The notes: a model not told the origin generated them from the letters alone. 64,000 bases of DNA from Alphaproteobacteria bacterium (GCA_016699305.1 CP064970.1:157419-221418); one strand, 5' to 3'. Shown: positions 1 through 15,717, counted from the stretch's first letter. Made by a program: numbers and translations.

Positions 1-841
1 GACGAACCTCCGTGAGCATATTTTTCAGGGCGTCATTGCAGATCAATCCCGCATAATTCGAGAAGATTTCTTCGCGCTTTTCTTCCCGTTTATGCTCCCA
101 TTTTTTCGAGAGAGGCACAACTCTGGATGCCATCAACTTTCTCTCACCGTTCAAGAAATACTGCCGTTGATGGAAATCACGCCTTGTGTCCTCGTTATCG
201 TTTGCTTCCATCCGGCCTTTCGACAAAAGAAGCTCAGCCCAGCAAATAACCTGAAAAGCTTCGTCTTTGCTGATTGCATAGAAATCATGCACCATTTTGC
301 GCGGCAGTTCATTGACGGCGACAATCTTATCGTTGTTAACAAGCGCAGGCATCTCATAGTGATAAAAAATACGTTTGTGGTCGGCCCCGCAAACTGCAGT
401 AGCGCCATATCCAAAAGCAGACTTGATATAAGAGCGGGAAACCCGCGACATCACATAGTCGCCACCCGCCTTAATTACATTTGGATCCGTCACGCCTTGT
501 GACAGGAAGTATTCCTTTATGCCTACGTAGAGCTTGTTTTCAATAAAGAGAAACTTGCCAATTGGAGACCCGTCCAACCAAACTACGGGGATTCCTTGGC
601 GCAGCAATTCCTGAACCATTTGATCGGTTCGTTTCAGGTTATCTATTCTCGGAGCATACGGTATAAATAGATCTTTTTCTGGTGAAACGATAACATCTGG
701 GCCTGTGTATGAAAGGCTATATCCTTTGTGATCAAAGGCCAAAACACCGCCATGCCGAGCGGTAATTTCGCATCGAGCAATACGCCAAGCCTGTTCAGGG
801 GACTTTCCTGAGAAAATATTGGATGGTGATGGAGTAGACAT
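1..841 (-). CDS. Hypothetical protein (island cargo); the 3' end runs off the window
   Basis: I translated this frame by hand. It is open from ATG 841 (MSTPSPSNIFSGKSPEQAW...) down to position 1. It is missing from the ORF track because there is no stop in the window. The start is 11 nt downstream of the preceding gene's stop. No recognisable motif. Confidence 0.5.
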   Translation of the reverse strand, partial: MSTPSPSNIFSGKSPEQAWRIARCEITARHGGVLAFDHKGYSLSYTGPDVIVSPEKDLFIPYAPRIDNLKRTDQMVQELLRQGIPVVWLDGSPIGKFLFIENKLYVGIKEYFLSQGVTDPNVIKAGGDYVMSRVSRSYIKSAFGYGATAVCGADHKRIFYHYEMPALVNNDKIVAVNELPRKMVHDFYAISKDEAFQVICWAELLLSKGRMEANDNEDTRRDFHQRQYFLNGERKLMASRVVPLSKKWEHKREEKREEIFSNYAGLICNDALKNMLTEVR

Positions 842-852
842 TGGTTCGTCCC

Positions 853-1356
853 TTACTGGTCGAACCGCTTGTCCCTTCGCGTTTTAGGTGGTGTTTTAGG
901 AGAAGATGGGTTTTTATAAACAACTTGATCTTCTGCTGAATAATAACTTCCAACGATGCGTTGCTTGATCGGGCGCATATCCTTCTGTTTACGGTATTCA
1001 ACGCCGGTAAGTTGGTCTTTTACGAGTTGATCAATGAGCAGTTTTTCGTCTTCGGGCGAAACTTCAAGATATTGCCCTGTTTTCGCATCCGTCTCAAAAG
1101 AAGCCGGGTATAAATAGCCACGGCGTTTTTCGAGATCCTTCACATAGACGTTAGGAATGGTCGTGATAAAAAGATCGTCACGAGCAAAATCCTCGCCCAT
1201 CGTGATGTACATCATTTTTTGGCCAACGCGGTACACCACGGTTTCCTCTCCGAAACCGTTGTCGATCATTTCGACAGGTGTTTTGCTCGTTGACGGCATT
1301 ACAAAGGGCATCCAAACCAAAGGCGTTTCATAATTTAAAGCTACGGATCCCAACAT
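853..1356 (-). CDS. Hypothetical protein (island cargo)
   Basis: ORF 853-1380. The ATG at 1356 (MLGSVALNY...) has a GGAGGG SD 5 nt upstream. The C-terminal tail is basic. No recognisable family. Confidence 0.5.
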   Translation of the reverse strand: MLGSVALNYETPLVWMPFVMPSTSKTPVEMIDNGFGEETVVYRVGQKMMYITMGEDFARDDLFITTIPNVYVKDLEKRRGYLYPASFETDAKTGQYLEVSPEDEKLLIDQLVKDQLTGVEYRKQKDMRPIKQRIVGSYYSAEDQVVYKNPSSPKTPPKTRRDKRFDQ

Positions 1357-1523
1357 AACGCCCTCCAATGGCTTTCTCAAATAGTTTCAGAAATATTAAC
1401 GGGTTAAAATGCCCTGCCGATGAACCCGAACACGAGGGGTATCTTACCAGAAAATGGCAAGCAAAACAATTTCATCAATACTTTCAACCACATAGTTACT
1501 TTTGTGTTAACAGGTTTTGGACG

Positions 1524-3080
1524 TTAAGGAATATGCGCAGAAATTATTGCGTTTTTCTCGGGCGGATTAACCATACCGCCTTCTCTTGCTGTGTTGGCGT
1601 TGCCATTTTCCACAAAATCATCCAAGTCCGCGCTCGTGTATCGCACGCTGTTTCCAACTTTGACATGCTTCGGGCCGGTTTTTCGCCAGCGCCAATGATC
1701 CATTAGGCGTGGGTTCACGCTCAGGTATTTGGCGGCCTGTTCGGACGTCATGAAGCGCGGCAGGTCATTGGTATTTTCGATGCACAGCAAGCCCGCAAGA
1801 GGAGCTAAGGCTGGTGGATCGACGGGAACGGCTTCAACATCGATGATCATTGGATTACTTGGTGGGGGAAGCGCTAAGAGGCATCCAAGTTCGTCGGTGA
1901 TTTTGCTGGCGGCTTCAAGCGCCGGATCGGTCGCAAGGTGTGCGTAGCGCGCCGTCGTTTGCGTTTGGGTGTGGCCGAGCAACTTTCCGATCATGGGAAG
2001 GCTCATGCCCATTGCTACGGCGTTTGAGGCGAAGGTGTGCCGAAGATCATGAATGCGGACATCTTCAATCTCCGCCCATTTACGGATTTTTTGCCACGTG
2101 GATTGCAAATCATAGATGGGTTCCTCCGGCTTGCTGTCAGAGCAAATCAAATACGGGTTGCCGTTCTTGTGCGGCAGATGACGCAACAGGTCGATAGCCG
2201 TCCGACCGAGGTGAATGAACTTCGGGCCGGTTTTGGAATCCGGCAATCGGATGATCCCGCGATCAAGCAGCACATATTCCCATTTGCAGCACCGGATCTC
2301 TCCAAGACGAGCACCGGTCAAAATCAGCAGACGGAAAGCGGCAATGGCATAAGGCGAGCAGAGCGTCGCTTCTTCCGCCATGCGAAGCGTTTCGCCCAGT
2401 CGACGCATCTCGTCGGCGGAGAGATAGCGCTCGCGTTTGACCTCCTTAAACTTTTTCAGGTGGCGGCAGGGGTTTGATCCGTCCTGACGCAGACCCCACA
2501 GCTCCGCGAGATTGAACATCTTGGAAAGCACAACCATGACTTTGTTCGCTTTGTCGGGGCTACTCGCAAGTTTGTGTTGAAGATTGGCGATGTCCGCGCG
2601 TGTGATGCTGGCGACCTTTAGGTGGCCAAGTTCTGGGATGATGTGTTTGTTCAGGAGATGCGTGTACTGAGCGCGGGTGCTTGGCTTCAGATGATCCTTG
2701 CAATGTACATCCTGAAACCTTTGCCCCAGATTGCGCACATCTGGAGCGGCGGCAAGCGCCTGCTTATCGCCGGAGGGATCGCCGCCGCCCCGCACAATGG
2801 CCAGAGTCTTTGTTGCCTTGACGCGCGCCTGCTCGACAGTGAGGACGGGATAATGACCAAGTGTGCAACGTCTGGCTCTGGTGCCCACGCGGTATTGCAG
2901 GACGAAGATCCTCTTTCCCGATGGCATGATGCGCACACCGAAGCCCGGCAATTCATCGTCAAAGATGAAATAGTCCTTGGCCTTGATCTCGGCGGATTCC
3001 AATGTGCGTTTCGTCAGTCGTGCCACAGCGTTCGAGCCTGTCGTTATTATGGTTCTCGTCAGCCATGCGCGCCGTTTCAT
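1524..3080 (-). CDS. Tyrosine site-specific integrase (P4/DUF4102-type arm-binding N-terminus) with a fused C-terminal AlpA/excisionase-like HTH
   Basis: The N-terminus (FIFDDELPGFGVRIMPSGKRIFVLQYRVG) matches the arm-binding domain type. The catalytic region reads HDLRHTFASNAV...LLGHTQTQTTARYAHL. An extra C-terminal segment reads FMTSEQAAKYLSVNPRLMDHWRWRKTGPKHVKVGNSVRYTSADLDDFV. Confidence 0.9.
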   Translation of the reverse strand: MKRRAWLTRTIITTGSNAVARLTKRTLESAEIKAKDYFIFDDELPGFGVRIMPSGKRIFVLQYRVGTRARRCTLGHYPVLTVEQARVKATKTLAIVRGGGDPSGDKQALAAAPDVRNLGQRFQDVHCKDHLKPSTRAQYTHLLNKHIIPELGHLKVASITRADIANLQHKLASSPDKANKVMVVLSKMFNLAELWGLRQDGSNPCRHLKKFKEVKRERYLSADEMRRLGETLRMAEEATLCSPYAIAAFRLLILTGARLGEIRCCKWEYVLLDRGIIRLPDSKTGPKFIHLGRTAIDLLRHLPHKNGNPYLICSDSKPEEPIYDLQSTWQKIRKWAEIEDVRIHDLRHTFASNAVAMGMSLPMIGKLLGHTQTQTTARYAHLATDPALEAASKITDELGCLLALPPPSNPMIIDVEAVPVDPPALAPLAGLLCIENTNDLPRFMTSEQAAKYLSVNPRLMDHWRWRKTGPKHVKVGNSVRYTSADLDDFVENGNANTAREGGMVNPPEKNAIISAHIP

Positions 3081-3241
3081 GGAAGCACTGTGGAAGCAAG
3101 AGGCTTCAAACCGGTGCGTAAAGCTGATAACCAGACAGTCGCTCTATAGGTCGCTGGAAGTCAACTAACACATTGATATAGCGTAATAAAAAGCGTTTCT
3201 TCGCATTCCTGCGAAGTTGTGCAAAATAGGCCGAGCGCAGT

Positions 3242-3286
3242 TTGGTAAGGACGGGGTCGGAGGTTCGATTCCTCTCAGTAGCACCA
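3242..3286 (+). other. tRNA 3' half (anticodon-loop-like TTGGTAA, variable loop GGGTC, T-arm GGAGG-TTCGATT-CCTCT, acceptor CAGTAGC, discriminator A, CCA); probable att remnant, tRNA-Thr(GGU)-like
   Basis: T-arm, acceptor and CCA have exact tRNA geometry. The complementary 5' acceptor strand GCTACTG is absent from the 120 nt upstream, and the anticodon stem cannot be closed. Confidence 0.5.
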
Positions 3287-3415
3287 TTTTTTCAATGAGT
3301 TATCCGCATTACCTCCATGAGTTGGGCAGTCTCGGCGGGGATGAAAGAATTATGAATATATGTCATTTGTTGTTACACTCTGAGGCGTTGCTGTAGATAT
3401 CTTTGGTAGGTAGCC

Positions 3416-3811
3416 ATGAAAAATTCATCCATCATCGTCTTAGGTTTAGCTTTGGCCTGTTCTGTGGCTACGTCTGCCATGGCAGCGCAGGATCGCTTGA
3501 GTGCCGAGCGCGGCTCATTGCAGCGTCAATGGGATAGAATACAGCCTCAATCTCAGGTGCTCCACGCTGAGCAGGATGATGTTGCAGTCGGGGGTGCCAC
3601 GTCTCTGGGCGCCGGGCGTACGTCCATAGGCAGAAGCGGGACGCCGCTGGCTGCGGGAGGGAGTCCGCTTGGAATGCGGGGCAGTCCTCTGGGTACGGCG
3701 CAATCTAATCTGGGTTATGGTGGTTCTCGGGTGCAAAATCCAGGCGGCGTGCTTAGTTCGCAGACAGCACCGCTCAGCAGTTATCAAAACGGCCTACAGA
3801 TTGCTCGCTAA
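3416..3811 (+). CDS. Small secreted Gly/Ser/Pro-rich protein (hypothetical)
   Basis: Signal peptide MKNSSIIVLGLALACSVATSAMA. The rest is low-complexity with a reiterated G-(S/T)-P-L-(A/G) motif. Confidence 0.5.
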   Translation: MKNSSIIVLGLALACSVATSAMAAQDRLSAERGSLQRQWDRIQPQSQVLHAEQDDVAVGGATSLGAGRTSIGRSGTPLAAGGSPLGMRGSPLGTAQSNLGYGGSRVQNPGGVLSSQTAPLSSYQNGLQIAR

Positions 3812-4009
3812 TGCTGTGAGACGCTCGCTCTCGTTCATGACCTTGTAGGCCCCGCAGTATTTCCGGTTTGTAAGACGTATTTTCGGGGCTATGCTGCTGT
3901 TCTTCCGCGCACACTACGTCTTGCGTTTGATGGTTTTGGCTGGATGAACGCGGTCTGCAATGCAGTTTCGGTCGGCCTGATATCTGCATTCCGCATTTTG
4001 CCACAGCGC

Positions 4010-5437
4010 CTATCTTTCCCTCAAGCTTTCATGCCCATATTGTAAGAGTGGGCTAAGGAAGTATTCGATCACGCGGCGTTTGCCGGTTTTGATCTCCACT
4101 GTCACGGCCATGCCGGGGCCAAGATGCACCTGTGTGCCATCGACCAGGATCGTAGAGCGTTCCATTCGGACGCGGGCGGTATAGATGAGGCCGCGTTTCT
4201 CGTCATTGATGGCATCGTGCGAGACGGAAAGCACCTTGGCATGAAGGGTGCCGTATTTGGTGTAGGGAAAAGTTTCGATCTTAATCTCGGCGTTCTGATT
4301 GGCTCTGACGAATCCGATATCCTTATTCTCGACGAAGGCTTCGATTTCCAAAGCGTCGTCGCGCGGCACGACGACCATCAACGCCTGGGCCGGCGTGACG
4401 ACGCCTCCCACGGTATGCACCGCCAATTGCTGAACTGTGCCTTCCACCGGCGCGGTCAGAGTCATCAATTTGCCGCGCGTGTCGGCTTTGAGCAATTCTT
4501 GCTCGGTCGCTGCGGCTTTTTGCATGCCGTCATTCAGGCTGTCCAGATGCGTGCGGCGTGTCTCGGCGGTAAGCTGGGATTTTTGTCCCTCGGCCTCACG
4601 CAAAGCGGCCTCGATCTCGTTCAGGCGACTGCGCTGCGCGGCCAGATCCGACTCCTGTTCGATATGGGCCTGTTGCTTTTCTAGATAGGCATGCTTGGAT
4701 ACCGCGCTGCGTTCCAGTAACTCCTTAAAGTCCTGGGCGCGCTGGCGCGCGAGGGGAGCCGTTTGCTCTAATTTATGCACCAGTTCCCGAGTTGATTCCA
4801 ACTCCGCCTGACGCTGCGCAATGGAGGCATCCATGCGTTCCAGTTTGGCCAGATACTCGCCATGCTGGCCCGATAGCCAGGACAGCGCCTCTTGCCAGCG
4901 TGATTCATCCAAATGAGCTGGCCGTTGTGGCAGTTCCAGCTTGCCTGAATCCAGCGCCGCCAGCATGGCTTTCGAACGCGCGGCCTGCAATTGGGAGAAA
5001 CCCAAATCGCCCGTTAGGCGGTCACGGTCTGCCTGGGCGTTTGTGGCATCCAACTCGATCAGCACATCTCCGGCTTTGACAGATTGCCCATCATGAACAT
5101 GGATTGCCTTAACCGTGGCGGTTTCGATCGGCTGGATGGTCTTGGTGCGGTCTCCTGGCACGATGCGTCCTTGGGCGGTGGCCACCATGTCAATCTGTCC
5201 GAATGTCGCCCATAGCACAGCCAACAAGGCAAAGCTCATGATAAGCCACATCGCCATGCGCGGCGCAGGGGATGGCGGCGTTTCCTGCAACGCCAACGCA
5301 GCGGGTAGAAATTGCGCTTCATGCGGCAAACGCGCCGGGCTATCCAGCTCTTGCCGATGCCGCCAAGCGTGACGTAGCACCGCCGCATAGCGCTTCCACA
5401 AATCCCCCCAAGCCTTGCTGTGTAATGTCCAGGTCAT
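4010..5437 (-). CDS. Type I secretion membrane fusion protein, HlyD family
   Basis: One N-terminal TM segment, a long coiled-coil region (LERMDASIAQRQAELESTRELV...), and a C-terminal beta-barrel block (VTVEIKTGKRRVIEYFLSPL) typical of HlyD. It begins 6 nt after the ABC gene ends. Confidence 0.9.
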   Translation of the reverse strand: MTWTLHSKAWGDLWKRYAAVLRHAWRHRQELDSPARLPHEAQFLPAALALQETPPSPAPRMAMWLIMSFALLAVLWATFGQIDMVATAQGRIVPGDRTKTIQPIETATVKAIHVHDGQSVKAGDVLIELDATNAQADRDRLTGDLGFSQLQAARSKAMLAALDSGKLELPQRPAHLDESRWQEALSWLSGQHGEYLAKLERMDASIAQRQAELESTRELVHKLEQTAPLARQRAQDFKELLERSAVSKHAYLEKQQAHIEQESDLAAQRSRLNEIEAALREAEGQKSQLTAETRRTHLDSLNDGMQKAAATEQELLKADTRGKLMTLTAPVEGTVQQLAVHTVGGVVTPAQALMVVVPRDDALEIEAFVENKDIGFVRANQNAEIKIETFPYTKYGTLHAKVLSVSHDAINDEKRGLIYTARVRMERSTILVDGTQVHLGPGMAVTVEIKTGKRRVIEYFLSPLLQYGHESLRER

Positions 5438-5443
5438 GGCGGC

Positions 5444-7606
5444 CTATCCCTGCTGCAATCGGTGCAGCCGTGCATAATGTCCGGCTTGACGCTGCATCAA
5501 TTCGGCATGTGCCCCAGCTTCGACGATGCGGCCCCGGTCCAGCACAATGATCCGATTGGCGTCCCGCACAGCGGACAAACGATGCGCGATGATGATCACC
5601 GTACGGCCCTGGCAAATGACTTTCATATTGTTTTGAATCACGCGCTCGGATTCATAGTCCAACGCGCTGGTGGCCTCATCAAAGATCAGGACACGCGGAT
5701 TGGTCATCAACGCGCGGGCGATGGCGATACGCTGACGCTGTCCACCCGAAAGGGTCGCGCCATGCTCGCCCACCATCGTGTCATAGGCTTCGGGAAGCTC
5801 CAGGATGAACTCATGCGCACCCGCCATCTTGGCGGCGCGCATCACGGCTTCGAGCGGCGCTCCTGGATCGGACAAAGCGATATTGTCGCGGATCGATCGG
5901 TTGAACAGCACATTTTCTTGCAAGACCACGCCGATCTGCCGCCGCAGTGACGATGAATCGGCCAGAGCCAGATCCATCCCATCGATCAGCACGCGCCCAC
6001 GTTCAGGCACATACAGCCGTTGCACCAATTTGGTCAGCGTGCTTTTACCCGACCCCGAACGACCAACGATGCCCAGTATCTCACCCGGTTGAATAACCAG
6101 TTCGATCCCGCACAACACTTCTGGCCCATCCGGGCGATAGCGAAAGGTCACATGATCCAGTTCGATCCGCCCCTTCAGTGCCGGAAGGCTGCTTTTCGCC
6201 CCCGCCGTCTCTCGATGCGTGTTCAGGATATCGCCCAGGCGCTGCATGGAGATACCGACCTGCTGGAAATCCGTCCATAACTGCGCCAAGCGCATCACGG
6301 GCTGCGCCACTTGTCCTGCCAGCATGTTAAAGGCAATTAGCTGGCCGACCGTCAGATGGCCTTCCATCACCAATCGTGCCCCGACATACAGCGTTGCCAC
6401 CGTCACCAGTTTTCCGATCAACGAAACGCCATTGCTGGCGAAGTTACCCAAAGCAGTGGTGCGGAAGCTGGAGGACACATAGGCCGCCAATTGGTTATCC
6501 CATTTGCGCGTCCATTGCGGCTCGACCGCCATGGCCTTGACCGTATCAATGCCGCTGATGGTTTCGACCAAAAAGGCTTGGTTCTCGGCACCACGATTAA
6601 ATTTCTCGTCCAGTCTCGCGCGCAATAAAGGGGTAACGAAAGCCGACAAAATGCCATAGCACGGCAAGGACAACACCACGATCAAGGTCAGCCAGCCGCT
6701 GTAGCACAGCATTACCGCGATAAAAACCACCGAGAACAGCAGATCAAGGACCAAGGTAATGGCGTTGCCCGTTAGGAAAGAGCGGATATTCTCCAACTCC
6801 CGTACACGCGCAACGGAATCGCCCACGCGCCGCGCCTGAAAATAGGCCAAGGGCAAGCCCAGCAAATGGCGAAACAGCCGTCCCCCCAATTCCACATCAA
6901 TGCGGCTGGAGGTATGGGCAAAGATATAACCACGCAGGGTATTCAACGTGACCTCGAACAGCACCACCACGCCAAGCCCTACGGCGATCACATCCAGAGT
7001 CGTCATGCCTCGATGCACCAGAACTTTATCCATCACCACTTGAAAAAACAGAGGCGTGATAAGCGCGAAGATTTGCAGCACAAAACTGACCAGAAGAACC
7101 TCACCCAGCAAACGGCGATATTTGACAACGGCGGGGATGAACCATGAGAAATCAAATTTTGCCATCTCTCCCGCCAGCGAAGCGCGCGAGGTGAATAGAA
7201 TCAATTCCCCCGTCCAGCGCGCATCAAGTTCTGCGCGGCTCACCGACTGAGGGCGACCAACAGCAGGATCCTGGATCAACACTTGATCCTCTTGTGCGCG
7301 CGCCACGATAAAGAATCCGCCCGCCCGATCTACGGCGATAGCGGGCAGCGGCGCGCGATCTAAACGTTCGATCTGCGTGCGCGTCAGCTTGGCATGCAGG
7401 CCCAATTGCTTGGCCGCCAAAAGAATCTCGGCTTGACCCAGCCTATGACCGTCAGATGCATGCTCATGAAGGATTTGATCGGGATCCGCCGCTACGCCGT
7501 GAAAGCGCGTCATCATCACAAGGCATGCCAGCCCCGAATCCACCACCGCCCCCGCAGTAGCTGCAGGATTGATTGTTGGTTTCTTGACGGAATCTTGCTC
7601 GGACAT
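5444..7606 (-). CDS. Type I secretion ABC transporter (HlyB type) with an N-terminal C39-like domain
   Basis: Walker A GRSGSGKST, signature [15 protein letters not shown], Walker B LIFDEATSALD, and a six-helix TMD. The N-terminal DSGLACLVMMTRFHG aligns with the C39 block, but Ser replaces the catalytic Cys. That is the inactive CLD form seen in RTX exporters. Confidence 0.92.
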   Translation of the reverse strand: MSEQDSVKKPTINPAATAGAVVDSGLACLVMMTRFHGVAADPDQILHEHASDGHRLGQAEILLAAKQLGLHAKLTRTQIERLDRAPLPAIAVDRAGGFFIVARAQEDQVLIQDPAVGRPQSVSRAELDARWTGELILFTSRASLAGEMAKFDFSWFIPAVVKYRRLLGEVLLVSFVLQIFALITPLFFQVVMDKVLVHRGMTTLDVIAVGLGVVVLFEVTLNTLRGYIFAHTSSRIDVELGGRLFRHLLGLPLAYFQARRVGDSVARVRELENIRSFLTGNAITLVLDLLFSVVFIAVMLCYSGWLTLIVVLSLPCYGILSAFVTPLLRARLDEKFNRGAENQAFLVETISGIDTVKAMAVEPQWTRKWDNQLAAYVSSSFRTTALGNFASNGVSLIGKLVTVATLYVGARLVMEGHLTVGQLIAFNMLAGQVAQPVMRLAQLWTDFQQVGISMQRLGDILNTHRETAGAKSSLPALKGRIELDHVTFRYRPDGPEVLCGIELVIQPGEILGIVGRSGSGKSTLTKLVQRLYVPERGRVLIDGMDLALADSSSLRRQIGVVLQENVLFNRSIRDNIALSDPGAPLEAVMRAAKMAGAHEFILELPEAYDTMVGEHGATLSGGQRQRIAIARALMTNPRVLIFDEATSALDYESERVIQNNMKVICQGRTVIIIAHRLSAVRDANRIIVLDRGRIVEAGAHAELMQRQAGHYARLHRLQQG

Positions 7607-7658
7607 GCCTGTGCTCGTATCAAATAGAAAGAGGTATATTATTTCATAATCGTTTTAA

Positions 7659-7704
7659 TATTTCGTGACCAACGCCACCGAAACACACTATAAGTCACGA
7701 AATA
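7659..7704. promoter_or_regulatory. Perfect 11-bp inverted repeat (TATTTCGTGAC ... GTCACGAAATA, 24-nt spacer) between the RTX gene and the T1SS ABC gene
   Basis: Read directly from the sequence at 7659-7669 and 7694-7704. It could be an operator or an RNA stem. Confidence 0.35.
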
Positions 7705-7717
7705 CTCTACCCATTTA

Positions 7718-7742
7718 GGGGGGGGGCAAACGAAGCCCCCCC
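7718..7742 (-). terminator. GC-only stem-loop (8-bp G/C stem, 7-nt loop) just downstream of the RTX stop codon; possible attenuator between cargo and exporter genes
   Basis: GGGGGGGC-AAACGAA-GCCCCCCC at 7720-7742. No U-tract follows on the transcribed strand, so this is not a canonical intrinsic terminator. Confidence 0.35.
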
Positions 7743-7757
7743 ATTCCAACCCCCTAC

Positions 7758-10700
7758 TTACGCCCAATTCGCGGCGATCACGCTGGCTAACGCCGCTTGG
7801 TAATTGCCGGGCAAGGTCGTCTGACCCATCACGGGTGGCGTGAAGCCCGCCATAGCGCTAACCAGATTCTCGACTTGGCTGTCCAGCAGAGTCTTGGCGT
7901 TAGAGGATTTGATCTGCTCGACATGATAGGCCTTGCCTGAATACCAGTTGCTGACAGTGACCTTATCCGCAGTGCCGATTAAGCTGACTTCCAGATTGTT
8001 CCCCACATGACGGAACCAGATTTGATCGCTGTTTGCTCCCGACAAAAAGGACAGAACATCCACATTGCCCGTGGTAGCGTCATTTTCCGTTAGAATGTCC
8101 GAGCCATCTCCTGCGGCAAAGTTATAAGTGTCATTACCCGAACCGCCCGTGAGCTGATCATTATCAGCATTACCAACCATAATGTCATTTCCAGCCCCGC
8201 CGCTGATGATGTCATTCCCAGCCCCGCCACGCAGCACATCAGCCCCTGTGCCGCCGAAAAGACGATCATTGCCGTTCTCGGCCCACATTTCGTCATTGCC
8301 CGATCCACCGGCCAGCATATCGTCGCCCTCGCCGCCGACCAGCTTATCGTTGCCGCCATTGCCAAAGATCTGATCATTGCCGCCATAAGTGCGGATGGTT
8401 TCCGCCTCGGCATCGCCCCAATAGATATCCGCCGCCGTGTTCGTCGTAGCCGTGCCCAAGGTGATATTCGTGCCGTAATTGCCACCCCACACCCAAGAGT
8501 CATAGGCGTAAAGACCCGCATAAGACCCATCATCGAATTGCAGCCAATCGATCGGACGATAAGCCGAATACTGATATTTCAGCAGCACATCATCGGCCGC
8601 GTTCAGCTTGATCAACACGTCATTCGTGGCTCCGGTCACCGAGAATCGTAGCGCATCGGTATCGGCCAGCCCTTGGATCAACAGCGTGTCCGTCCCCGCG
8701 CCGCCACCGCTGGCGTCATCGAGCACATCATGACCGTAACCGGCGGCAAAGACATATTTGTCATCGCCCAGACCGCCATAGAGGACGTCGGACCCAGCCT
8801 CGCCATAAAGCTGGTCATTGCCATCATTGCCCTGAATTTGGTCATCGCCCGCCCCGCCATACAAGGCGTCGGCATCTCCCTCGCCATAGATTCGATCATT
8901 GCCAGCGCCGCCCCATATGTGGTCAAGCCCTGCGCCACCACGGATCGCATCATTCCCTGCATCACCGTTCAACTGATCCGCGCCGTCTTCGCCATAGAGC
9001 GTATCATCGCCATCGCCGCCCCAAGCTTTGTCGTTGCCGGTGCCGCCTTGGATAAGGTCCACCCCGGCATCGCCGTTTAGTTGATCGTCGCCGTCTTGAC
9101 CATAGAGCTTGTCATCGCCGAGGCCGCCCCAAGCTTTGTCGTTGCCGGTGCCGCCTTGGATAAGGTCCACCCCGGCATCGCCGTTTAGTTGATCGTCGCC
9201 GTCTTCGCCATAGAGCGTATCATCACCATCGCCGCCCCAAGCCGAGTCATTGCCGATGCCGCCTTGGATAAGGTCCACCCCGGCATCGCCGTTTAATTGA
9301 TCGTCGCCGTCTTCGCCATAGAGCTTATCATCGCCGGTACCGCCCCAAGCTTTGTCGTTGCCGGTGCCGCCTTGGATAAGGTCTAACCCGGCATCGCCGT
9401 TCAACTGATCCGCGCCGTCCTCGCCAGAGAGCGTATCATCACCATCGCCGCCCCAAGCTTTGTCGTTGCCGGTGCCGCCTTGGATAAGGTCCACCCCGGC
9501 ATCGCCGTTTAATTGATCGTCGCCGTCTTGGCCATAGAGCTTATCATCGCCGAGGCCACCCCAAGCTTTGTCGTTGCCGGTGCCGCCTTGGATAAGGTCT
9601 AACCCGGCATCGCCGTTTAATTGATCGTCGCCGTCTTGGCCATAGAGCTTATCATCGCCATCGCCGCCCCAAGCGTTGTCGTTGCCTTCTCCACCGGAAA
9701 CTCCGTCATTTCCATCACTGCCCCAGCATGTATCGTTGCCGTTGCCGCCGGATATCCCGTCATTCCCCGCTTCGCCGTTCAGCTGATCATCGCCATCGCC
9801 GCCCGAAATTGAATCATTCCCATCACCACCCCAAGCTTTATCATTGCCGGCCTTACCTTCAAGATTGTCATCCCCAGCATCGCCGAATAGCTGGTCATTG
9901 CCATTGTCACCTGAAATCATGTCATCCCCAGCATTGCCGTAAAGCTGGTCATTGCCATTGTCACCTGAAATCATGTCATCCCCAGCATTGCCGTAAAGCT
10001 GATCATCGCCGTCTTCGCCAAACAGCCTGTCATCGCCATCGCCGCCCCATGCTTTGTCATTGCCCACGCCGCCGAATATCCAATCATTCCCGGCATCGCC
10101 GTTTAGTTGATCGGCACCGTCTTCGCCATTGAGCGTATCATCCCCGTCTCCGCCCAATATTTTGTCATTGCCGGCACCCCCTAACACAGAATCGTTACCT
10201 TCCCCCGCATCGATCACATCATCCGTCGCCGCACCTACAATGCCTGTTATATTGTCATCCCAATCCGTCCCGAACGTTTTCATTGAAAGTCCCGCCAGGG
10301 ATATCATCTGTCCGTTTGACAACTTGATATAGTCTAACCGATTGCTTACAGCATGATAGAACTGACCCATCACCGTAATCAGATCAAGCCCCGCGATCAC
10401 AATCGCCAGGTTCTGGTTGCCATCATGGTAATAGGACACCTGCGCTGCCGTAATGCCGGCCGGAGCCAGCAACACATCCTGCAGATCGTTGCCCTCCTCA
10501 TAAATGCGGTCATAGCCGGACGAGGCAACATAGATGTCATTGCCGACCCCACCTTCCAACACATCCGTCCCAATGCCGCCGTCTAATTTATCATCAGACA
10601 TGCCGCCATATAAAGAATCATCCCCGCCGTAGCCATATAAAGCCATCTTAAAAGTAGGAGAAGTCCAGGTAAAGTCGTGTCCATAAGAGAATATACTGTC

Positions 10701-13001
10701 ATTTCCCTCAGTCCCATAGGATGAAACCGTGATGCGATTGTCACCTTTCATAGAATAGACCACACCATTCGCCAAACGTAAATTATCTATATTTGTGATG
10801 CGTCTATCATTTATGGGAATAGTGGAAAATTCCACATACTGATTTTCTTTTAGAGCTATTTCTCCTAAATTAGCTACATGAATCTTTAATGCATAACTAT
10901 CAGAATATGAGGCATGATAATGATCAGTATATTCAAAATTTAAATTAGATAGAGTCACGCCAGTCGGCATAACTATCGTATCATTACTGTTATAAAAATA
11001 GGGTGTGTTATTGACACGATATGTTGAATTATCATCATAGCGATCATAACCACTTGTATAAATATACGTATCATCCCCGCTTCCACCATAAACATCATCA
11101 TCGCCATCTCCACCTTTAAAAGTATTATTTCCAGAGATGCCTAGAATATCGTAAGAACCTACGTCTCTTAGAACATCATTTCCGGCGCCGCCATCCAGTA
11201 TATCGTTGCCTACGTCTCCATATAATTCATCTCTCCCCTCACCGCCGTATAACGTGTCATTACCTTCACCCCCATATAATGTATCGCTTCCCGTCCCGCC
11301 GTATAATGTATCTTTGCCTAAACTTCCTGCCATCCAATCATCGTCTTCATCGCCATAAATAACATCATTGGCAGATCCCCCAATGATATGGTCATATCCT
11401 GTATTGCCATGAAGCGTGGCATTTACCATCAGGCCGGATATACTGATAAGGTCATTCCCGCCCATGCCATTGACGCTGACATTTTGCGTCCATGCACCCG
11501 ATGACGAGTATATCGTGTCATTATAATTGGTGCCGTAAGAGATGGGGACGTACATATTGGTGTACACGCCGCCGGCATCTGTCCCATACCCATAGGTATG
11601 CTGCACAGGGGGAGGCGCAGGCTGATTCATGTGAATCAGATATGTGCCGCCTGCCGCGCTGGCCGTAGGCGTAATGGTAAAATCCGTAAAAGCCCATCCC
11701 CCGGAAGACGGATAGATCCGAAAGCCAGGGTCCGATGAACCGCGCAGCACCACCAAAGCGCCGTCAAGGTCGTCGTCCAGCTCGCTGGGCACGACATAAA
11801 TCATCTTGGTTGTCGTGTCGAAAATATAGGCGCGGTTTTTATTGGGCAGGAAAGGCAAAGGGGTGTCCTGCGCGCCGATGGCGATGGCCTGGATCGGCAC
11901 GCGGATCATGCTGCCCACGGCCACAGAACAAACTCCCGCGTCCCAGTAAACGCCATCATCCTCGGTCACGCGATCATTCAGCCGCCCTAACAGATCGGCG
12001 CTATATCTCACACTGGCGGCGATAGAGGCCAGGGTTTCTCCCGGCTGCACCAGATGAAACCCCGTGCCCGGCACATTCACCGCGTCCCGCGCGCTGGCCA
12101 GCAGATTGGCGCGAATGGCTGTTAAGTCCGTCACCGCCGTACTGCCCGCCGGAAATGTTTTGATATGATTGGCGATATTCGCGGCCTCCTGCTTCAACGC
12201 CAAAGCCACAAACACCCCCGCCAGCGGATTGGCGGTAAAGTTGATGCTGGTTGCGTTATCGTCAGTTTCCACAGCTGTCACGCCCAGCGCTGCCGCCAGG
12301 TCACGGAGGCGGCGGCTTTCCAGGCCCTGTTTATAAACGCCCTCGGCTTTATTATTAAAGAACAGCACATCGGCCAGGAATGCGCCGATATTGCCTTGCT
12401 GAATATATTTTCCCTGCAAATCCCCATAAACCCCGTTATACTTTTCGCTGATCAACAACGCATGCAGGCCGTTATTCGCCAATGTGTGGCCCTCATCACC
12501 GGCGTTCAGCTTCGGATCCGTGATCTTACTGATCAATTCAGGCTCGTATCGGCGCTTCATCGCGGCGTTCAGCAAGGCCAGGCCTTGAGCCTGCGTTAGG
12601 CCCTTGGGTGGCTGGTCCGTGACCGTCCCTGCATAATCATTCTTGAAAGCGGTATTGAGTGCCGCCAATGTCTTTTCGTCCCCAGACTTAATATAACTGA
12701 CCAGCAATTCGCGCGTACTATACATTGTGCCGCCGACATCATTTGTCTTAGCATCACTGATGGCAATCCCCGCCGCCGTGAAATCGGCAATAATCCCCGC
12801 ACCCGTCTGCTTGCTGATGTCATAGCCATAGCCGATAGTGTAGTCCAGATTCCCCGGTTTCCCATACTTTCCTGCTGCGGGAAGGTTACTTCCTCCCAAA
12901 TAAAGAGGCCTGTTCTCTCCCTCCTGGAGCATCTTGTTACGCACGGCCAGATAGGCGGCGTTATCAGCATAGTTTGGAAAAAGAACGGCGAATTTCGACA
13001 T
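7758..13001 (-). CDS. Giant RTX (GGxGxD nonapeptide) calcium-binding T1SS substrate with an N-terminal lysozyme-like domain and a LysM motif
   Basis: The ATG at 13001 (MSKFAVLF...) has a GGGAG SD about 9 nt upstream, so the track's earlier start at 13112 is unlikely. There are dozens of GGxGNDxL/GDDxLYG repeats. The C-terminus (VLSFLSGANSDQIWFRHVGNNLEVSLIGTADKVTVSNWY...VENLVSAMAGF) is typical of RTX secretion regions. N-terminal blocks are QEGENRPLY...DYTIGYGYD, GLTQAQGLALLNAAMKRRYEPEL and LHALLISEKYNGV...GNIGAFLADVLFF. The LysM-like block is FHLVQPGETLASIAASVRYSADLLGRLNDRV...MIRVP. Confidence 0.9.
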   Translation of the reverse strand: MSKFAVLFPNYADNAAYLAVRNKMLQEGENRPLYLGGSNLPAAGKYGKPGNLDYTIGYGYDISKQTGAGIIADFTAAGIAISDAKTNDVGGTMYSTRELLVSYIKSGDEKTLAALNTAFKNDYAGTVTDQPPKGLTQAQGLALLNAAMKRRYEPELISKITDPKLNAGDEGHTLANNGLHALLISEKYNGVYGDLQGKYIQQGNIGAFLADVLFFNNKAEGVYKQGLESRRLRDLAAALGVTAVETDDNATSINFTANPLAGVFVALALKQEAANIANHIKTFPAGSTAVTDLTAIRANLLASARDAVNVPGTGFHLVQPGETLASIAASVRYSADLLGRLNDRVTEDDGVYWDAGVCSVAVGSMIRVPIQAIAIGAQDTPLPFLPNKNRAYIFDTTTKMIYVVPSELDDDLDGALVVLRGSSDPGFRIYPSSGGWAFTDFTITPTASAAGGTYLIHMNQPAPPPVQHTYGYGTDAGGVYTNMYVPISYGTNYNDTIYSSSGAWTQNVSVNGMGGNDLISISGLMVNATLHGNTGYDHIIGGSANDVIYGDEDDDWMAGSLGKDTLYGGTGSDTLYGGEGNDTLYGGEGRDELYGDVGNDILDGGAGNDVLRDVGSYDILGISGNNTFKGGDGDDDVYGGSGDDTYIYTSGYDRYDDNSTYRVNNTPYFYNSNDTIVMPTGVTLSNLNFEYTDHYHASYSDSYALKIHVANLGEIALKENQYVEFSTIPINDRRITNIDNLRLANGVVYSMKGDNRITVSSYGTEGNDSIFSYGHDFTWTSPTFKMALYGYGGDDSLYGGMSDDKLDGGIGTDVLEGGVGNDIYVASSGYDRIYEEGNDLQDVLLAPAGITAAQVSYYHDGNQNLAIVIAGLDLITVMGQFYHAVSNRLDYIKLSNGQMISLAGLSMKTFGTDWDDNITGIVGAATDDVIDAGEGNDSVLGGAGNDKILGGDGDDTLNGEDGADQLNGDAGNDWIFGGVGNDKAWGGDGDDRLFGEDGDDQLYGNAGDDMISGDNGNDQLYGNAGDDMISGDNGNDQLFGDAGDDNLEGKAGNDKAWGGDGNDSISGGDGDDQLNGEAGNDGISGGNGNDTCWGSDGNDGVSGGEGNDNAWGGDGDDKLYGQDGDDQLNGDAGLDLIQGGTGNDKAWGGLGDDKLYGQDGDDQLNGDAGVDLIQGGTGNDKAWGGDGDDTLSGEDGADQLNGDAGLDLIQGGTGNDKAWGGTGDDKLYGEDGDDQLNGDAGVDLIQGGIGNDSAWGGDGDDTLYGEDGDDQLNGDAGVDLIQGGTGNDKAWGGLGDDKLYGQDGDDQLNGDAGVDLIQGGTGNDKAWGGDGDDTLYGEDGADQLNGDAGNDAIRGGAGLDHIWGGAGNDRIYGEGDADALYGGAGDDQIQGNDGNDQLYGEAGSDVLYGGLGDDKYVFAAGYGHDVLDDASGGGAGTDTLLIQGLADTDALRFSVTGATNDVLIKLNAADDVLLKYQYSAYRPIDWLQFDDGSYAGLYAYDSWVWGGNYGTNITLGTATTNTAADIYWGDAEAETIRTYGGNDQIFGNGGNDKLVGGEGDDMLAGGSGNDEMWAENGNDRLFGGTGADVLRGGAGNDIISGGAGNDIMVGNADNDQLTGGSGNDTYNFAAGDGSDILTENDATTGNVDVLSFLSGANSDQIWFRHVGNNLEVSLIGTADKVTVSNWYSGKAYHVEQIKSSNAKTLLDSQVENLVSAMAGFTPPVMGQTTLPGNYQAALASVIAANWA
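8955..9660. repeat. About six near-identical tandem 108-nt (36-aa) repeats inside the RTX gene
   Basis: The unit LNGDAG(V/L)DLIQGGTGNDKAWGG(D/L/T)GDD(K/T)LYG(Q/E)DG(D/A)DQ recurs. Nucleotide copies are nearly identical (ggataaggtccaccccggcatcgccgttta...). Confidence 0.85.
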
Positions 13002-13026
13002 GTTGGTTACTCCCGACTTGTGTGGA

Positions 13027-14065
13027 TCAGTGGTGGCCTGGTGCGAATTTGATTTTATGCGTGATGCTGGATTCGATGTAACACAAGTCATCACCGGGTG
13101 GTCGTGCCGCATCGGCCACGACCATCAGGTCATGCGGGGTAGTGCTCATCAATATAAGGTAATATTTGCCGTGAATATTCGCAAAATGGGCAAGACTCGG
13201 CCCCCGATCAAAATTACTCCATGGCATTTCATCCTTCTGCAATTCAGCAGAAATCTTAGGAAATACCAGCTTACCTTGATACCCCAAGAGACTCCTTATA
13301 CCATTGACGGCAACCCTTACCGATTTTTCCATCATTTACCTCTTCATATGGCAGGTATGATTTGTAATAAGACCAGTCTTCCATTTTCAGTTTATCTGCA
13401 GGAATATCCCACTCCAAAAGCATGAATGGTGGCTGGATTACAGAGCGATACTTATCCGACGGATTCGTATGGATCGTCACCAACCGATCCACGCCGTCAT
13501 TCTTATAGGGCAGGATTTGCCAGTATTCCAAAGGTGCATCACCAATTGCAAAGCGACTGCCGTTATCGCCAGATGTCCCGCCTTGAATAAAATTCCACTG
13601 GGTGAAGATGGGATCGCTGAACAGCGGGTTTTGGGAACGATAGAAATCGTGATGCCCCCAGCGGAGGTTTTCGATCTTATCCGGTCGCGGCATCGGATGC
13701 GTGACTCGCCGGATGGCTTCCTTAGGATCCATACGCAGCGTGTCGTTCAGCGTCTTCACGATCACCTTGCACACCGGATCGCCATCATAGACCAGCTTAT
13801 AGGTGCGGCGTGGCCGCAGCCCCCAGCCGCCCAGGCAGTCGGGCGCGTAGCAGCCCAGTTTGTCGCAGGCCTGTGCTGGCACGGTGCTTCTTGCTCGCCC
13901 GCACGCGCCACCCCATGAGACTTTGGGCACGCCTTCTTCAGCATCGGCCTGCGCCGCACCGCTGGGCGGCGTTTGCGCATACACCGCGCTTGGCATCATG
14001 CCCATCAAGGCCGATCCCAAAAGAAAGACGGAGAGGACAGAGCGCGAAGCGGAAAAGGTCATCAA
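13027..14065 (-). pseudogene. Copy B1 of the signal-peptide protein upstream of the RTX gene; disrupted by a +1 frameshift (or a sequencing error)
   Basis: ORFs 13271-14065 and 13027-13335 together reproduce the 345-aa protein encoded at 14523-15560. There is an extra base at about 13312 (gacggcaaccc against gacggcaccc in copy 2). Confidence 0.8.
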
Positions 14066-14126
14066 ATCACCTCGAAGTTAAGCGGCCAGCGCAGTTGCAA
14101 ATATGTTTCTTGTCCTTACACGCCCG

Positions 14127-14155
14127 GATATAGCGCATCCGCGCGTGCCGTGCAA
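14127..14155 (-). promoter_or_regulatory. Candidate sigma70-type promoter for B1 (TTGCAC-17 nt-TATATC on the minus strand)
   Basis: The -35 is at 14150-14155 and the -10 at 14127-14132, 62 nt upstream of the B1 ATG. The identical sequence recurs upstream of B2. Confidence 0.3.
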
Positions 14156-14204
14156 TGGAAATAATGTCGATTTATTACATACCCTTGGTTGGTTAATGCG
14201 CCGA

Positions 14205-14497
14205 TCGCGCGTGCTATACAGCACACCGCCAACATTGTTTGTCTTGGCATCGCTGATGGCGATCCCCGCCGCCGTAAAATCGGCAATAATTCCTGCACCC
14301 GTCTGCTTGCTGATGTCATAGCCATAGCCGATAGTGTAGTCCAGATTCCCCGGTTTCCCATACTTTCCTGCTGCGGGAAGGTTACTTCCTCCCAAATAAA
14401 GAGGCCTGTTCTCTCCCTCCTGGAGCATCTTGTTACGCACGGCCAGATAGGCGGCGTTATCAGCATAGTTTGGAAAAAGAACGGCGAATTTCGACAT
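14205..14497 (-). pseudogene. Orphan 5' fragment of the RTX gene (first ~97 codons, including the TIGYGYD block), fused to the upstream region of B1
   Basis: MSKFAVLFPNYADNAAYLAV...ISDAKTNNVGGVLYSTRD is nearly identical to the N-terminus of the full gene. It then reads into non-homologous sequence (RRINQPRVCNKS...) and stops at 14078. Confidence 0.85.
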
Positions 14498-14522
14498 GTT
14501 GGTTACTCCCGACTTGTGTGGA

Positions 14523-15560
14523 TCAGTGGTGGCCTGGTGCGAATTTGATTTTATGCGTGATGCTGGATTCGATGTAACACAAGTCATCACCGGGTGGTCG
14601 TGCCGCATCGGCCACGACCATCAGGTCATGCGGGGTAGTGCTCATCAATATAAGGTAATATTTGCCGTGAATATTCGCAAAATGGGCAAGACTCGGCCCC
14701 CGATCAAAATTACTCCATGGCATTTCATCCTTCTGCAATTCAGCAGAAATCTTAGGAAATACCAGCTTACCTTGATACCCCAAGAGACTCCTTATACCAT
14801 TGACGGCACCCTTACCGATTTTTCCATCATTTACCTCTTCATATGGCAGGTATGATTTGTAATAAGACCAGTCTTCCATTTTCAGTTTATCTGCAGGAAT
14901 ATCCCACTCCAAAAGCATGAATGGTGGCTGGATTACAGAGCGATACTTATCCGACGGATTCGTATGGATCGTCACCAACTGATCCACGCCGTCATTTTTA
15001 TAGGGCAGGATTTGCCAGTATTCAAAGGCCGTATCGCCGATCGAAAAACGGCTTCCATTCTCACCATGAATCCCGCCCTGTATTAAATTCCACTGGGTAA
15101 AGATGGGATCGCTGAACAGCGGGTTTTGTGAGCGATAGAAATCCACACCCCTCCATCTGAGTTTTTCGATCTTGTCCGGGCGCGGCGTCGGATGCGTCAC
15201 GCGCTTGATGGCTTCTTTGGGGTCCATACGCAGCGTGTCGTTCAGCGTCTTCACGATCACCTTGCACACCGGATCGCCGTCATAGACCAGTTTATAGGTA
15301 CGGCGTGGCCGCAGCCCCCAGCCGCCCAGGCAGTCGGGCGCGTAGCAGCCCAGTTTGTCGCAGGCCGTGGCGGGAACGGCTTTTCTTCCCTGATCGCACG
15401 CGCCGCCCCATGAGACTTTGGGAATGCCCTCTTCATCATCGGCCTGCGCCGCACCGCTGGGCGGCGTTTGCGCATACACCGCGCTTGGCATCATGCCCAT
15501 CAAGGCCGATCCCAAAAGAAAGACGGAGAGGACAGAGCGCGAAGCGGAAAAGGTCATCAA
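14523..15560 (-). CDS. Copy B2: secreted or periplasmic 345-aa protein of unknown family (candidate immunity or accessory protein of the RTX locus)
   Basis: GAGGTG SD 6 nt upstream of the ATG. Signal peptide MMTFSASRSVLSVFLLGSALMGMMPSAVYA-QT. The mature N-terminus is Cys-rich (GGACDQGRKAVPATACDKLGCYAPDC). I recognise no motif. Confidence 0.8.
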   Translation of the reverse strand: MMTFSASRSVLSVFLLGSALMGMMPSAVYAQTPPSGAAQADDEEGIPKVSWGGACDQGRKAVPATACDKLGCYAPDCLGGWGLRPRRTYKLVYDGDPVCKVIVKTLNDTLRMDPKEAIKRVTHPTPRPDKIEKLRWRGVDFYRSQNPLFSDPIFTQWNLIQGGIHGENGSRFSIGDTAFEYWQILPYKNDGVDQLVTIHTNPSDKYRSVIQPPFMLLEWDIPADKLKMEDWSYYKSYLPYEEVNDGKIGKGAVNGIRSLLGYQGKLVFPKISAELQKDEMPWSNFDRGPSLAHFANIHGKYYLILMSTTPHDLMVVADAARPPGDDLCYIESSITHKIKFAPGHH

Positions 15561-15621
15561 ATCACCTCGAAGTTAAGCGGCCAGCGCAGTTGCAAATATG
15601 TTTCTTGTCCTTACACGCCCG

Positions 15622-15650
15622 GATATAGCGCATCCGCGCGTGCCGTGCAA
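15622..15650 (-). promoter_or_regulatory. Candidate sigma70-type promoter for B2 (duplicate of 14127-14155)
   Basis: Same TTGCAC-17-TATATC sequence, 1495 nt to the right. Confidence 0.3.
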
Positions 15651-15717
15651 TGGAAATAATGTCGATTTATTACATACCCTTGGTTGGTTAATGCGCCGAT
15701 CGCGCGTGCTATACAGC

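Follow-up and report, generated by a model that had tools for sequence, protein, structure and literature searches.

What does a protein destined for type I secretion do with a lysozyme-like domain at its N-terminus, and why should the gene in front of it encode an exported protein? Both questions are raised by a locus on the minus strand of a 64,000-nucleotide (nt) stretch of DNA from Alphaproteobacteria bacterium (GCA_016699305.1 CP064970.1:157419-221418), here called the window, to which all coordinates refer unless another locus is named. Between positions 4010 and 16112 this strand carries, in order of transcription, a 179-amino-acid (aa) open reading frame (ORF), an exported protein (B), a shortened duplicate of the 5' end of the next large gene (A'), a second copy of B (B'), a repeats-in-toxin (RTX) protein (A), an ATP-binding cassette (ABC) exporter and a membrane-fusion protein. 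Residues of A are counted from the ATG at 13001. Our analysis leads us to favour, tentatively, a model in which A is a secreted RTX enzyme with a peptidoglycan-directed head, made up of a glycoside hydrolase family 24 (GH24)-like fold, a small alpha/beta subdomain and a LysM motif, and in which B is its periplasmic partner, most likely an inhibitor.

The secreted RTX protein and its lysozyme-like head

Protein A (1747 aa; 7758..13001, minus strand) is, as read from its sequence, an RTX substrate of a type I secretion system (T1SS). Blocks of nonapeptide repeats split by non-repeat segments occupy aa ~512-1628 (8118..11468), where Pfam HemolysinCabind matches 34 stretches (E 3e-155) and a regular expression finds 33 strict GGxGxDxUx repeats between aa 559 and 1619. 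They are followed by an HCBP_related domain (PF06594, 47.6 bits at aa 1669-1698) within the C-terminal secretion signal region (aa 1669-1747; 7761..7997), which ends in ALASVIAANWA and resembles the C-terminus of the homologue P0007. Both the repeats and the signal region had been recognised in the initial annotation and are confirmed by these matches. The reading frame of A stays open up to an ATG at 13112 (7758-13112, 1784 aa). However, the ATG at 13001 is the likely start, because a GGGAG Shine-Dalgarno sequence lies 8 nt upstream of it and the homologues of A all begin MS(K/N/Q)F. A hydrophobic pore-forming region was not found in A.

The export genes downstream of A are clear in their assignment. 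The ABC permease/ATPase (720 aa; 5444..7606, minus strand) scores 1045 bits against the HlyB model TIGR01846 (cut-off 725.55) and 568.9 bits against the LssB/LapB-type model TIGR03375, which is under the cut-off of 693.1. The HlyD-family membrane-fusion (periplasmic adaptor) protein (475 aa; 4010..5437, minus strand) scores 410 bits against TIGR01843 (cut-off 208.65) and also matches Pfam HlyD_3 and Biotin_lipoyl_2. At its N-terminus the exporter has a C39-like domain (Peptidase_C39, aa 22-142) which by its residues is of the non-proteolytic type found in RTX-toxin exporters, since alignment to the ComA sequence places Ser24 where the catalytic Cys would be and shows that the His has been lost. 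An HlyB-like exporter with an inactive C39-like domain, paired with an HlyD-like protein, is what had been described from the outset. Exporters of the HlyB type form the class tied to one-step release (PMC6959600; 10.1101/198937).

The exporter and membrane-fusion genes lie 6 nt apart and a 151-nt spacer (7607..7757, minus strand) separates A from the exporter gene; the ORF coordinates reproduce both distances as originally given. The spacer had also been called structured, which agrees with its minimum free energy of -51.3 kcal/mol and z-score of -3.2 against shuffles. Directly 3' of the stop codon of A it contains a G+C-rich hairpin, GGGGGGGC/GCCCCCCC, which is probably an attenuator or terminator, a role assigned by analogy with hlyA-hlyB. 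A TolC-type component is not encoded at the T1SS locus, although no search of the window was aimed at TolC-type genes; at another locus, L008, a TolC-type gene adjoins the homologue of A. The slot of hlyC, previously noted to hold an exported protein, does so, as B and B' carry a signal peptide and have no match to an HlyC-type acyltransferase in Pfam or NCBIfam. Activation of A in the manner of HlyC was rejected because the acyltransferase gene is absent.

The first 240 residues of A (12282..13001, minus strand) resemble a divergent GH24, or T4-type, lysozyme with an insertion of ~75 aa after the TIGYGYD hairpin. An AlphaFold2 model of aa 1-310, built on an alignment of 13 sequences, has a predicted local distance difference test (pLDDT) score of 85.1 and a predicted template modelling (pTM) score of 0.83. 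When this model is compared with the PDB using Foldseek, a GH24-type lysozyme is found in all but one of the ten best matches. The top matches include 8hp8, 6et6 (prob 0.90), 4zpu, 3hde, 8b2s, the pesticin-T4 lysozyme (T4L) entry 4epi and the T4L-fusion receptor 5cxv, and the top proteins include the engineered endolysin EC340, an Acinetobacter prophage muramidase (6et6), DLP12 RrrD, phage 21 R, a fungal GH24 muramidase and a pesticin-T4L hybrid. A T4-type lysozyme is present in at least 27 of the 50 top PDB chains, as against ~0.3% of distinct PDB sequences (579/177,635), and in BFVD every named match with a probability of 0.3 or more is called 'Endolysin' or 'Lysozyme'. The root-mean-square deviations of 2.7-3.1 Å apply to local matches of ~110 columns only. 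Since GH24 dominates the top of these searches while all E-values are 0.26 or higher, the assignment is weak in score and consistent in direction. The structural search that had been suggested for this region has thus yielded the GH24 and pesticin-T4L matches anticipated, at E-values that fall short.

Sequence profiles give a similar picture. Phage_lysozyme (PF00959) is the sole Pfam family matched by more than one of the 13 head-family members, with sub-threshold matches in five of them (best E 0.001, 19.6 bits; cut-off 22.3). No lysozyme match to the head was obtained in NCBIfam or PHROGs, and phmmer of A(1-420) against PDB sequences gave no meaningful match. The peptide blocks that first drew attention to this region lie at aa 26-34, 53-61, 134-156, 179-191 and 201-215, with LysM from 315, exactly as had been reported, and the lysozyme-like N-terminus proposed from them is upheld at the level of the fold by the Foldseek matches and the recurrent sub-threshold PF00959. 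Four ordered blocks fit GH24 of the P21/P22 type: E29-(N/G)...T55-IGYGYD, LTxxQAxxLL, SExYNG and GLExRR, the last of which had been overlooked. E29, T55-IGYGYD61, SExYNG and GLExRR are unchanged across the four full-length heads in the alignment. Glu29, near the C-terminal end of helix 14-34, is kept in each of the 11 family sequences that extend over it, and Thr is found at the T55 position in 10 of the 11, with a connecting loop of 9-26 residues. The earlier alignment had implied E27 as the catalytic Glu; this candidate was rejected because E27 is not conserved while E29 is. We conclude that a divergent GH24-like fold for the head of A is well supported.

Two further elements complete the head. 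The small alpha/beta subdomain (aa 241-310; 12072..12281, minus strand) is modelled with a pLDDT of 92-95, has strands at 242-254 and helices at 259-308, and is conserved in homologues. It is followed by the LysM motif (PF01476; aa 316-369; 11895..12056, minus strand), for which the Pfam cut-off of 20.9 bits is exceeded on a 120-aa fragment (aa 301-420, 22.7 bits) and in the homologues P0019 (24.1 bits) and P0009 (25.2 bits), in keeping with the LysM-like motif noted before. On full-length A the motif scores 18.2 bits, and profile positions 1-33 of 43 only are matched.

The head (aa 1-418) is the sole portion of A common to its homologues, the bodies of which differ. When 1.84 billion cluster representatives were searched exhaustively with phmmer, only 14 head-family proteins were recovered, among the relatives being proteins of 868-2830 aa that share residues 1-418 of A and then continue into different repeats. 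A search with the family profile returned five proteins only, and JGI metagenomes contributed four loci with the head. A word-indexed search of 5.8 billion proteins gave no match to A(1-420), GTDB representative genomes contained no relative of the head or of B or of either profile, PLSDB plasmids had neither head nor B, and the INPHARED phage collection, searched with the head, gave nothing significant. Plasmid-like contigs with replication, partition and relaxase genes carry the head module at L002, L008 and L091. The head is a rare, uncharacterised family that lacks a Pfam model, and the module is mobile and rare in its distribution. At one locus (L093, 2518-5940) the head is split into a 177-aa ORF and a 908-aa ORF that begins with the LysM region and continues into YD-like 'DDGS..T..YD' repeats, not RTX; several kinds of repeat scaffold are thus joined to the head.

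Partner genes in the upstream slot

Homologues of B lie directly upstream of A-like genes at six independent loci, these being the window, L001, L002, L006, L093 and L096. They share 31-40% identity with B (E 1e-34 to 1e-61) and are separated from the A-like gene by gaps of 2 to 56 nt, or overlap it. A survey of gene neighbourhoods had been proposed on the expectation that B homologues would recur upstream of lysozyme-headed genes, and these six loci agree with it. The homologues were found from the A side only, which is a source of bias, and searches centred on B returned nothing else: the word-indexed search retrieved only B' of the window itself, and JGI metagenomes nothing for B.

At five loci the same upstream slot holds a second family, C, which had escaped the initial annotation. 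Its members are exported, Cys-rich proteins of ~180 aa, unrelated to B and without a Pfam or PDB match, encoded directly upstream of A-like genes at L002 (8379-8933), L007 (9214-9942), L008 (3672-4205), L090 (~1327-1644) and L092 (~440-1030). Family C occurs alone in four of these loci and precedes B in L002; the window has no member of it. In L091 the slot is taken by a further putative exported ORF. The group formed by L003, L004 and L005 has neither B nor C, with a LuxR-type gene and an M23 peptidase gene upstream; in L003, the M23 peptidase gene (55 bits) and the LuxR-type regulator gene, at 7770-8264 (minus strand) and 8607-9761 (plus strand), are found just upstream of a lysozyme-headed protein of 2830 aa. 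The M23 family includes peptidoglycan endopeptidases. Since the A-like loci vary in their repeat bodies and their contigs mostly lack T1SS genes, it is the head with which the partner gene travels, and not the RTX repeats or the T1SS genes. A neighbour-joining tree of the heads is only partly congruent with partner type (B or C).

Protein B of the window (345 aa; 14523..15560, minus strand) is intact, probably starts at ATG 15557, and has an N-terminal Sec-type signal (...SAVYA/QT), no lipobox and conserved cysteines. Its family had not been recognised before, nor could it be placed by searches of Pfam, NCBIfam, PHROGs and the PDB, including phmmer and an hmmsearch of the PDB with the B family. 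Near the mature N-terminus (15345-15362, B aa 67-72) members of the B family share a Cys-x4-Cys-Tyr loop (CDKLGC, CNAKGC, CEAKHC), with the second Cys spaced differently in L093. This loop recalls the active-site-plugging CKPHDC loop of the lysozyme inhibitor Ivy.

Immediately beside A, the partner region is duplicated. Two copies of a 1.5-kb unit (12709-14222 and 14205-15717) form a tandem direct repeat across 12709..15717, with 94.7% identity over 1517 aligned nt (blastn), and each consists of a leader, a B gene, a 25-nt gap and approximately the first 100 codons (5' ~290 nt) of A. Neither the duplication nor the frameshifted B' next to A had been noticed. As the repeat lies between B and A, the 25-nt gap formerly given for B to A is real for B (15560-14523) to A' (ATG 14497) and for B' (14065-13027) to A (13001), and for these pairs only. 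Similarly, the gene order B, A, exporter and membrane-fusion protein holds good for the ORFs themselves, but a 345-aa B does not adjoin full-length A, since A' and B' intervene. A' (14078..14497, minus strand) is a 139-aa ORF with 84% identity to A over 116 aa; it retains about the first 100 codons of A, including E29 and TIGYGYD, then runs over the repeat junction to a stop at 14078 and has no secretion signal. B' (13027..14065, minus strand) has one extra T at 13313 (GGGTTGCC vs GGGTGCC), which splits it into ORFs of 264 and 102 aa. Without this T it would encode the full 345 aa and differ from B at 25 residues, all within aa 42-194. The frameshift lies within an identical tract and so is either very recent or a sequencing error, making B' either a pseudogene or a product of such an error.

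Over codons 42-194 of B and B' the synonymous rate (dS) is 0.39 and the nonsynonymous rate (dN) 0.084 (dN/dS ~0.22), a ratio that speaks for purifying selection on B. From B codon 200 to codon 345, across the 25-nt gap and through the first ~90 codons of A, the copies are 100% identical; they differ at four positions in the leader and have diverged in the last ~100 nt of the unit. An 18-bp junction sequence, tgtatagcacgcgcgatc, marks positions 15717 and 14222 and recurs with two mismatches at 12726. Such a mosaic points to two old alleles that purifying selection has kept and that share a tract of recent conversion. Its appearance is that of a long-standing duplication, or of an imported allele, overlaid by recent gene conversion, and not that of a simple duplication made recently. 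The arrangement of B and A' resembles the orphan immunity/toxin-fragment arrays of polymorphic toxin loci, although this is only an analogy.

On one side of the T1SS locus lies a gene for a P4-type tyrosine integrase (Phage_integrase, Arm-DNA-bind_3; 1524-3080, minus strand) and on the other glmS (from ~16139), and within window positions 1-16000 the G+C content is 47-48% at 1-2 kb and 10-12 kb compared with 55-62% elsewhere. Given these flanks and local dips, the T1SS locus is probably a genomic island. A tRNA gene is not present near it, an Rfam scan of positions 1-20000 gave no match and a promoter scan scored no better than shuffled sequence. At its upstream end, the 179-aa ORF (15573..16112, minus strand) has weak FG-GAP/EF-hand-like matches only, together with the motifs LDLDGDG..FDLDNDG..NGNGLIDNGNELLG; it is joined at 15717 to the repeat leader, and its end is only a few tens of bases from the start of glmS on the opposite strand. 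This ORF probably represents what is left of the 5' end of another gene for a secreted calcium-binding protein, cut off when the B-A cassette arrived. At the other end, a 131-aa ORF (3416-3811, plus strand) converges with the membrane-fusion gene and encodes a signal peptide and a Gly/Ser/Leu-rich repetitive tail, with no family match.

Possible roles of the head and its partner

Our tentative model of a secreted enzyme with a periplasmic inhibitor would operate as follows. After its synthesis in the cytoplasm, A would be recognised by the HlyB-type exporter, which has the C39-like domain, on the basis of its C-terminal signal and RTX region, and would be threaded C-terminus first through the exporter, the HlyD-type adaptor and a TolC-type channel, to fold outside the cell upon calcium binding. 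The head, being the last part to emerge, would bind peptidoglycan through LysM and cut glycan strands with Glu29 as the acid catalyst. Catalysis is plausible and, as the second GH24 carboxylate is absent, might proceed by single-Glu chemistry like that of lytic transglycosylases. B would be sent separately to the periplasm of the producer by the Sec pathway, where it would act as the cognate partner of the head and likely as an inhibitor that shields the producer's wall from enzyme that has leaked or been delivered by siblings. Whereas the secretion genes, the RTX nature of A, the LysM motif, the coupling of B to the head and, with weak scores, the fold are established, we infer catalysis, inhibition by B and the target, which may be competitor bacteria or other substrates. 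For B, a part in inhibition or immunity is plausible.

Several observations weigh against this model. For the head, the fold statistics are weak, with Foldseek E-values of at least 0.26 and target-normalised TM-scores of 0.40-0.52. A itself has no Pfam lysozyme match even at E 10, and a hidden Markov model (HMM) of the head family, run against PDB sequences with hmmsearch, found no lysozyme. An hhalign comparison of the head family with three GH24 sequences, themselves checked against the PDB, aligned the blocks of the initial annotation but was not significant (E 0.068, probability <1%). The loop between E29 and T55 has no conserved acidic residue in the place of the GH24 Asp (T4L D20), so that the missing Asp, which had been raised as a caveat for A, is a feature of the whole family. 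No outer-membrane uptake module is recognisable in A with Pfam or NCBIfam, no route across the outer membrane of a Gram-negative target is evident, and in the homologue P0017 the body carries the adhesin-type domains AIDA, Big_12 and HYR. For the partner, B is missing at about half of the A-like loci, where C or, in the L003 group, neither family replaces it; the copy that adjoins A in the window is the frameshifted B'; B has no similarity to known immunity or inhibitor families, and its single-sequence AlphaFold model reaches a pLDDT of only 31. Finally, it is not obvious why a protein exported in one step by a T1SS should call for an immunity protein in the periplasm.

An extension of the same model, possible but doubtful, would see in these loci a mobile class of T1SS interbacterial wall toxins, of which the window would hold the first example. 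A GH24-like/LysM warhead would be mounted on interchangeable scaffolds (RTX, AIDA/Ig-like and others), immunity in the periplasm of the producer would be conferred by the unrelated and hitherto unknown families B or C, and the B-A' cassette would be an orphan immunity/toxin-fragment array as in contact-dependent inhibition (CDI) and Rhs systems. Since the warhead is N-terminal, such an array would sit at the 5' end.

The main rival, rather unlikely in our view yet with several observations behind it, is a role as a cell-wall anchor. The head would then stay in the periplasm of the producer and, in parallel to the LapA retention module, grip the producer's peptidoglycan with its lysozyme-like fold and LysM, tethering the RTX body at the surface through the outer-membrane channel as an adhesin or S-layer-like structure, while B or C would hold the head inactive or control attachment and release. 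The position of the head suits this, as an N-terminal domain is exported last; HlyA is exported with its C-terminus in the lead, and N-terminal domains that fold fast stall type I secretion (PMC4648471). LapA-type adhesins are kept at the cell by an N-terminal module within reach of a periplasmic protein (10.1101/198937). An anchor would also explain why the head is the constant of the family and its bodies are variable and adhesin-like, as in P0017, and why the gene for a periplasmic partner is tightly linked to it, and the missing GH24 Asp would suit a module that only binds. However, the exporter is of the HlyB type and under the cut-off of the LssB/LapB-type model that describes the exporters of retention-module adhesins (PMC6959600). 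No LapG-like protease or LapD accompanies it, B matches neither BTLCP nor any other Pfam family, and the homologues do not conserve the TAAG at aa 75-78, which falls inside a predicted helix. The invariant Glu29 and the substrate-groove motifs (YNG, GLExRR) are more typical of an enzyme, and in the literature searched no peptidoglycan-anchored T1SS protein is described. A retention system of the LapG/LapD type in particular was rejected as a candidate, because its defining features (a TIGR03375 score above cut-off, a BTLCP match in B and a conserved TAAG at aa 75-78) are lacking.

Less probable again is that A is a released lysin or glycan-binding exoprotein that acts on exposed peptidoglycan or chitin-like glycans, such as those of Gram-positive neighbours, fungal walls, host surfaces or debris, in the service of nutrition or adhesion, with B and C as accessory proteins for folding, processing or the envelope and not as inhibitors. 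In favour of this, LysM domains bind peptidoglycan as well as chitin-type glycans, and an outer-membrane uptake module is not recognisable in A. At 345 aa, B exceeds the small lysozyme inhibitors Ivy, MliC and Pim and is not similar to them. The B' copy beside A is broken while A is intact, which suggests that B may not be essential. What argues against mere accessory proteins is that the coupling of head and partner recurs across very different bodies and genomic backgrounds, that two unrelated exported families alternate in the slot, a pattern typical of cognate protective partners, and that an intact copy of B persists 1.5 kb upstream in the same orientation.

That the helical fold is a chance convergence, with an unrelated function for the head and coincidental motif matches, could draw on structure-search E-values that all exceed 0.2, on non-significant HMM and hhalign tests and on a model built from 13 sequences only, but is very improbable given that GH24 tops two different structure libraries (PDB and BFVD), that PF00959 is the only Pfam family to recur among the members, that four motif blocks, among them those with the invariant Glu and Thr, line up in order with GH24, and that a peptidoglycan-binding LysM stands next to the domain.

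Relation to known systems

The closest parallel to our preferred arrangement, a hydrolase-headed substrate with an exported inhibitor, is found in Xanthomonas citri. X-Tfe(XAC2609) has an N-terminal peptidoglycan hydrolase, a peptidoglycan-binding domain, a C-terminal secretion signal and no signal peptide, and the periplasmic X-Tfi(XAC2610) inhibits it and guards against cis-intoxication (PMC10933484). A is built on the same plan, with an N-terminal hydrolase-like domain, a peptidoglycan-binding domain, a C-terminal signal and an adjacent gene for an exported partner. In contrast to X-Tfe(XAC2609), A would leave by a T1SS with an RTX body and not by a type IV secretion system with XVIPCD, and its fold is GH24-like and not GH19. 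B, unlike X-Tfi(XAC2610), to which it has no detectable similarity, is a putative inhibitor, and in the window copy its signal is of the Sec type and lacks a lipobox.

In its fold, the head compares with the GH24 endolysins (T4 lysozyme, P22 gp19, phage 21 R and DLP12 RrrD; PF00959) and the muramidase domain of pesticin, with which it shares fold-level similarity, the ordered motifs E..TIGYG, LTxxQAxxLL, YNxG and GLxxRR, and an invariant Glu and Thr at what would be the catalytic positions. Unlike the endolysins, A is under the Pfam cut-off, lacks the conserved Asp, has ~75 residues inserted after the beta-hairpin and an extra C-terminal alpha/beta subdomain, and has its lysozyme-like domain joined to LysM and ~1300 aa of RTX repeats. 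In pesticin the lysozyme domain is C-terminal, behind a TonB-box and receptor-binding modules that are not seen in A.

As regards secretion, the locus is organised like classical RTX operons (hlyCABD) and those of RTX bacteriocins such as rhizobial RzcA, in that the substrate gene is followed by a hairpin spacer, an HlyB-type exporter with a C39-like domain and an HlyD-type protein, and in that the substrate combines nonapeptide repeats with a C-terminal signal. It departs from them in the exported protein upstream and the wall-directed N-terminus, and neither an HlyC acyltransferase nor a pore-forming region was found at the A locus. With adhesins of the LapA/RtxA type (10.1101/198937; PMC6959600) A has in common the large T1SS-exported repeat protein, an N-terminal domain linked to a periplasmic protein and homologues with adhesin-like repeats. 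The A locus differs in having no ABC protein of the LapB/LssB subgroup, no LapG or LapD and no di-alanine site, and in a head that is lysozyme-like with LysM and does not have the LapA retention fold.

Among type VI and type IV effectors and colicin-like bacteriocins, lysozyme-type enzymes paired with a periplasmic immunity protein are well known; no such enzyme is known to be delivered by type I secretion. The literature searched contains no description of a muramidase or LysM head on an RTX or T1SS substrate, and within it the novelty first noted for an RTX protein with a muramidase head holds. The components (the T1SS, RTX repeats, a GH24-like fold, LysM and the logic of effector and immunity) are known, whereas their combination, the head family and the B and C families are undescribed.

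If the head is active and B is its inhibitor, a wall-degrading weapon or lysin would be added to the simplest of the Gram-negative secretion systems and B and C would represent two new families of inhibitors, which would also raise the question of how an enzyme secreted in one step meets the periplasm. If instead the head anchors A to the wall of its producer, it would constitute a new way to keep T1SS surface proteins at the cell. In both cases, the head, B and C are families yet to be characterised, and a clear and testable genetic link joins them.

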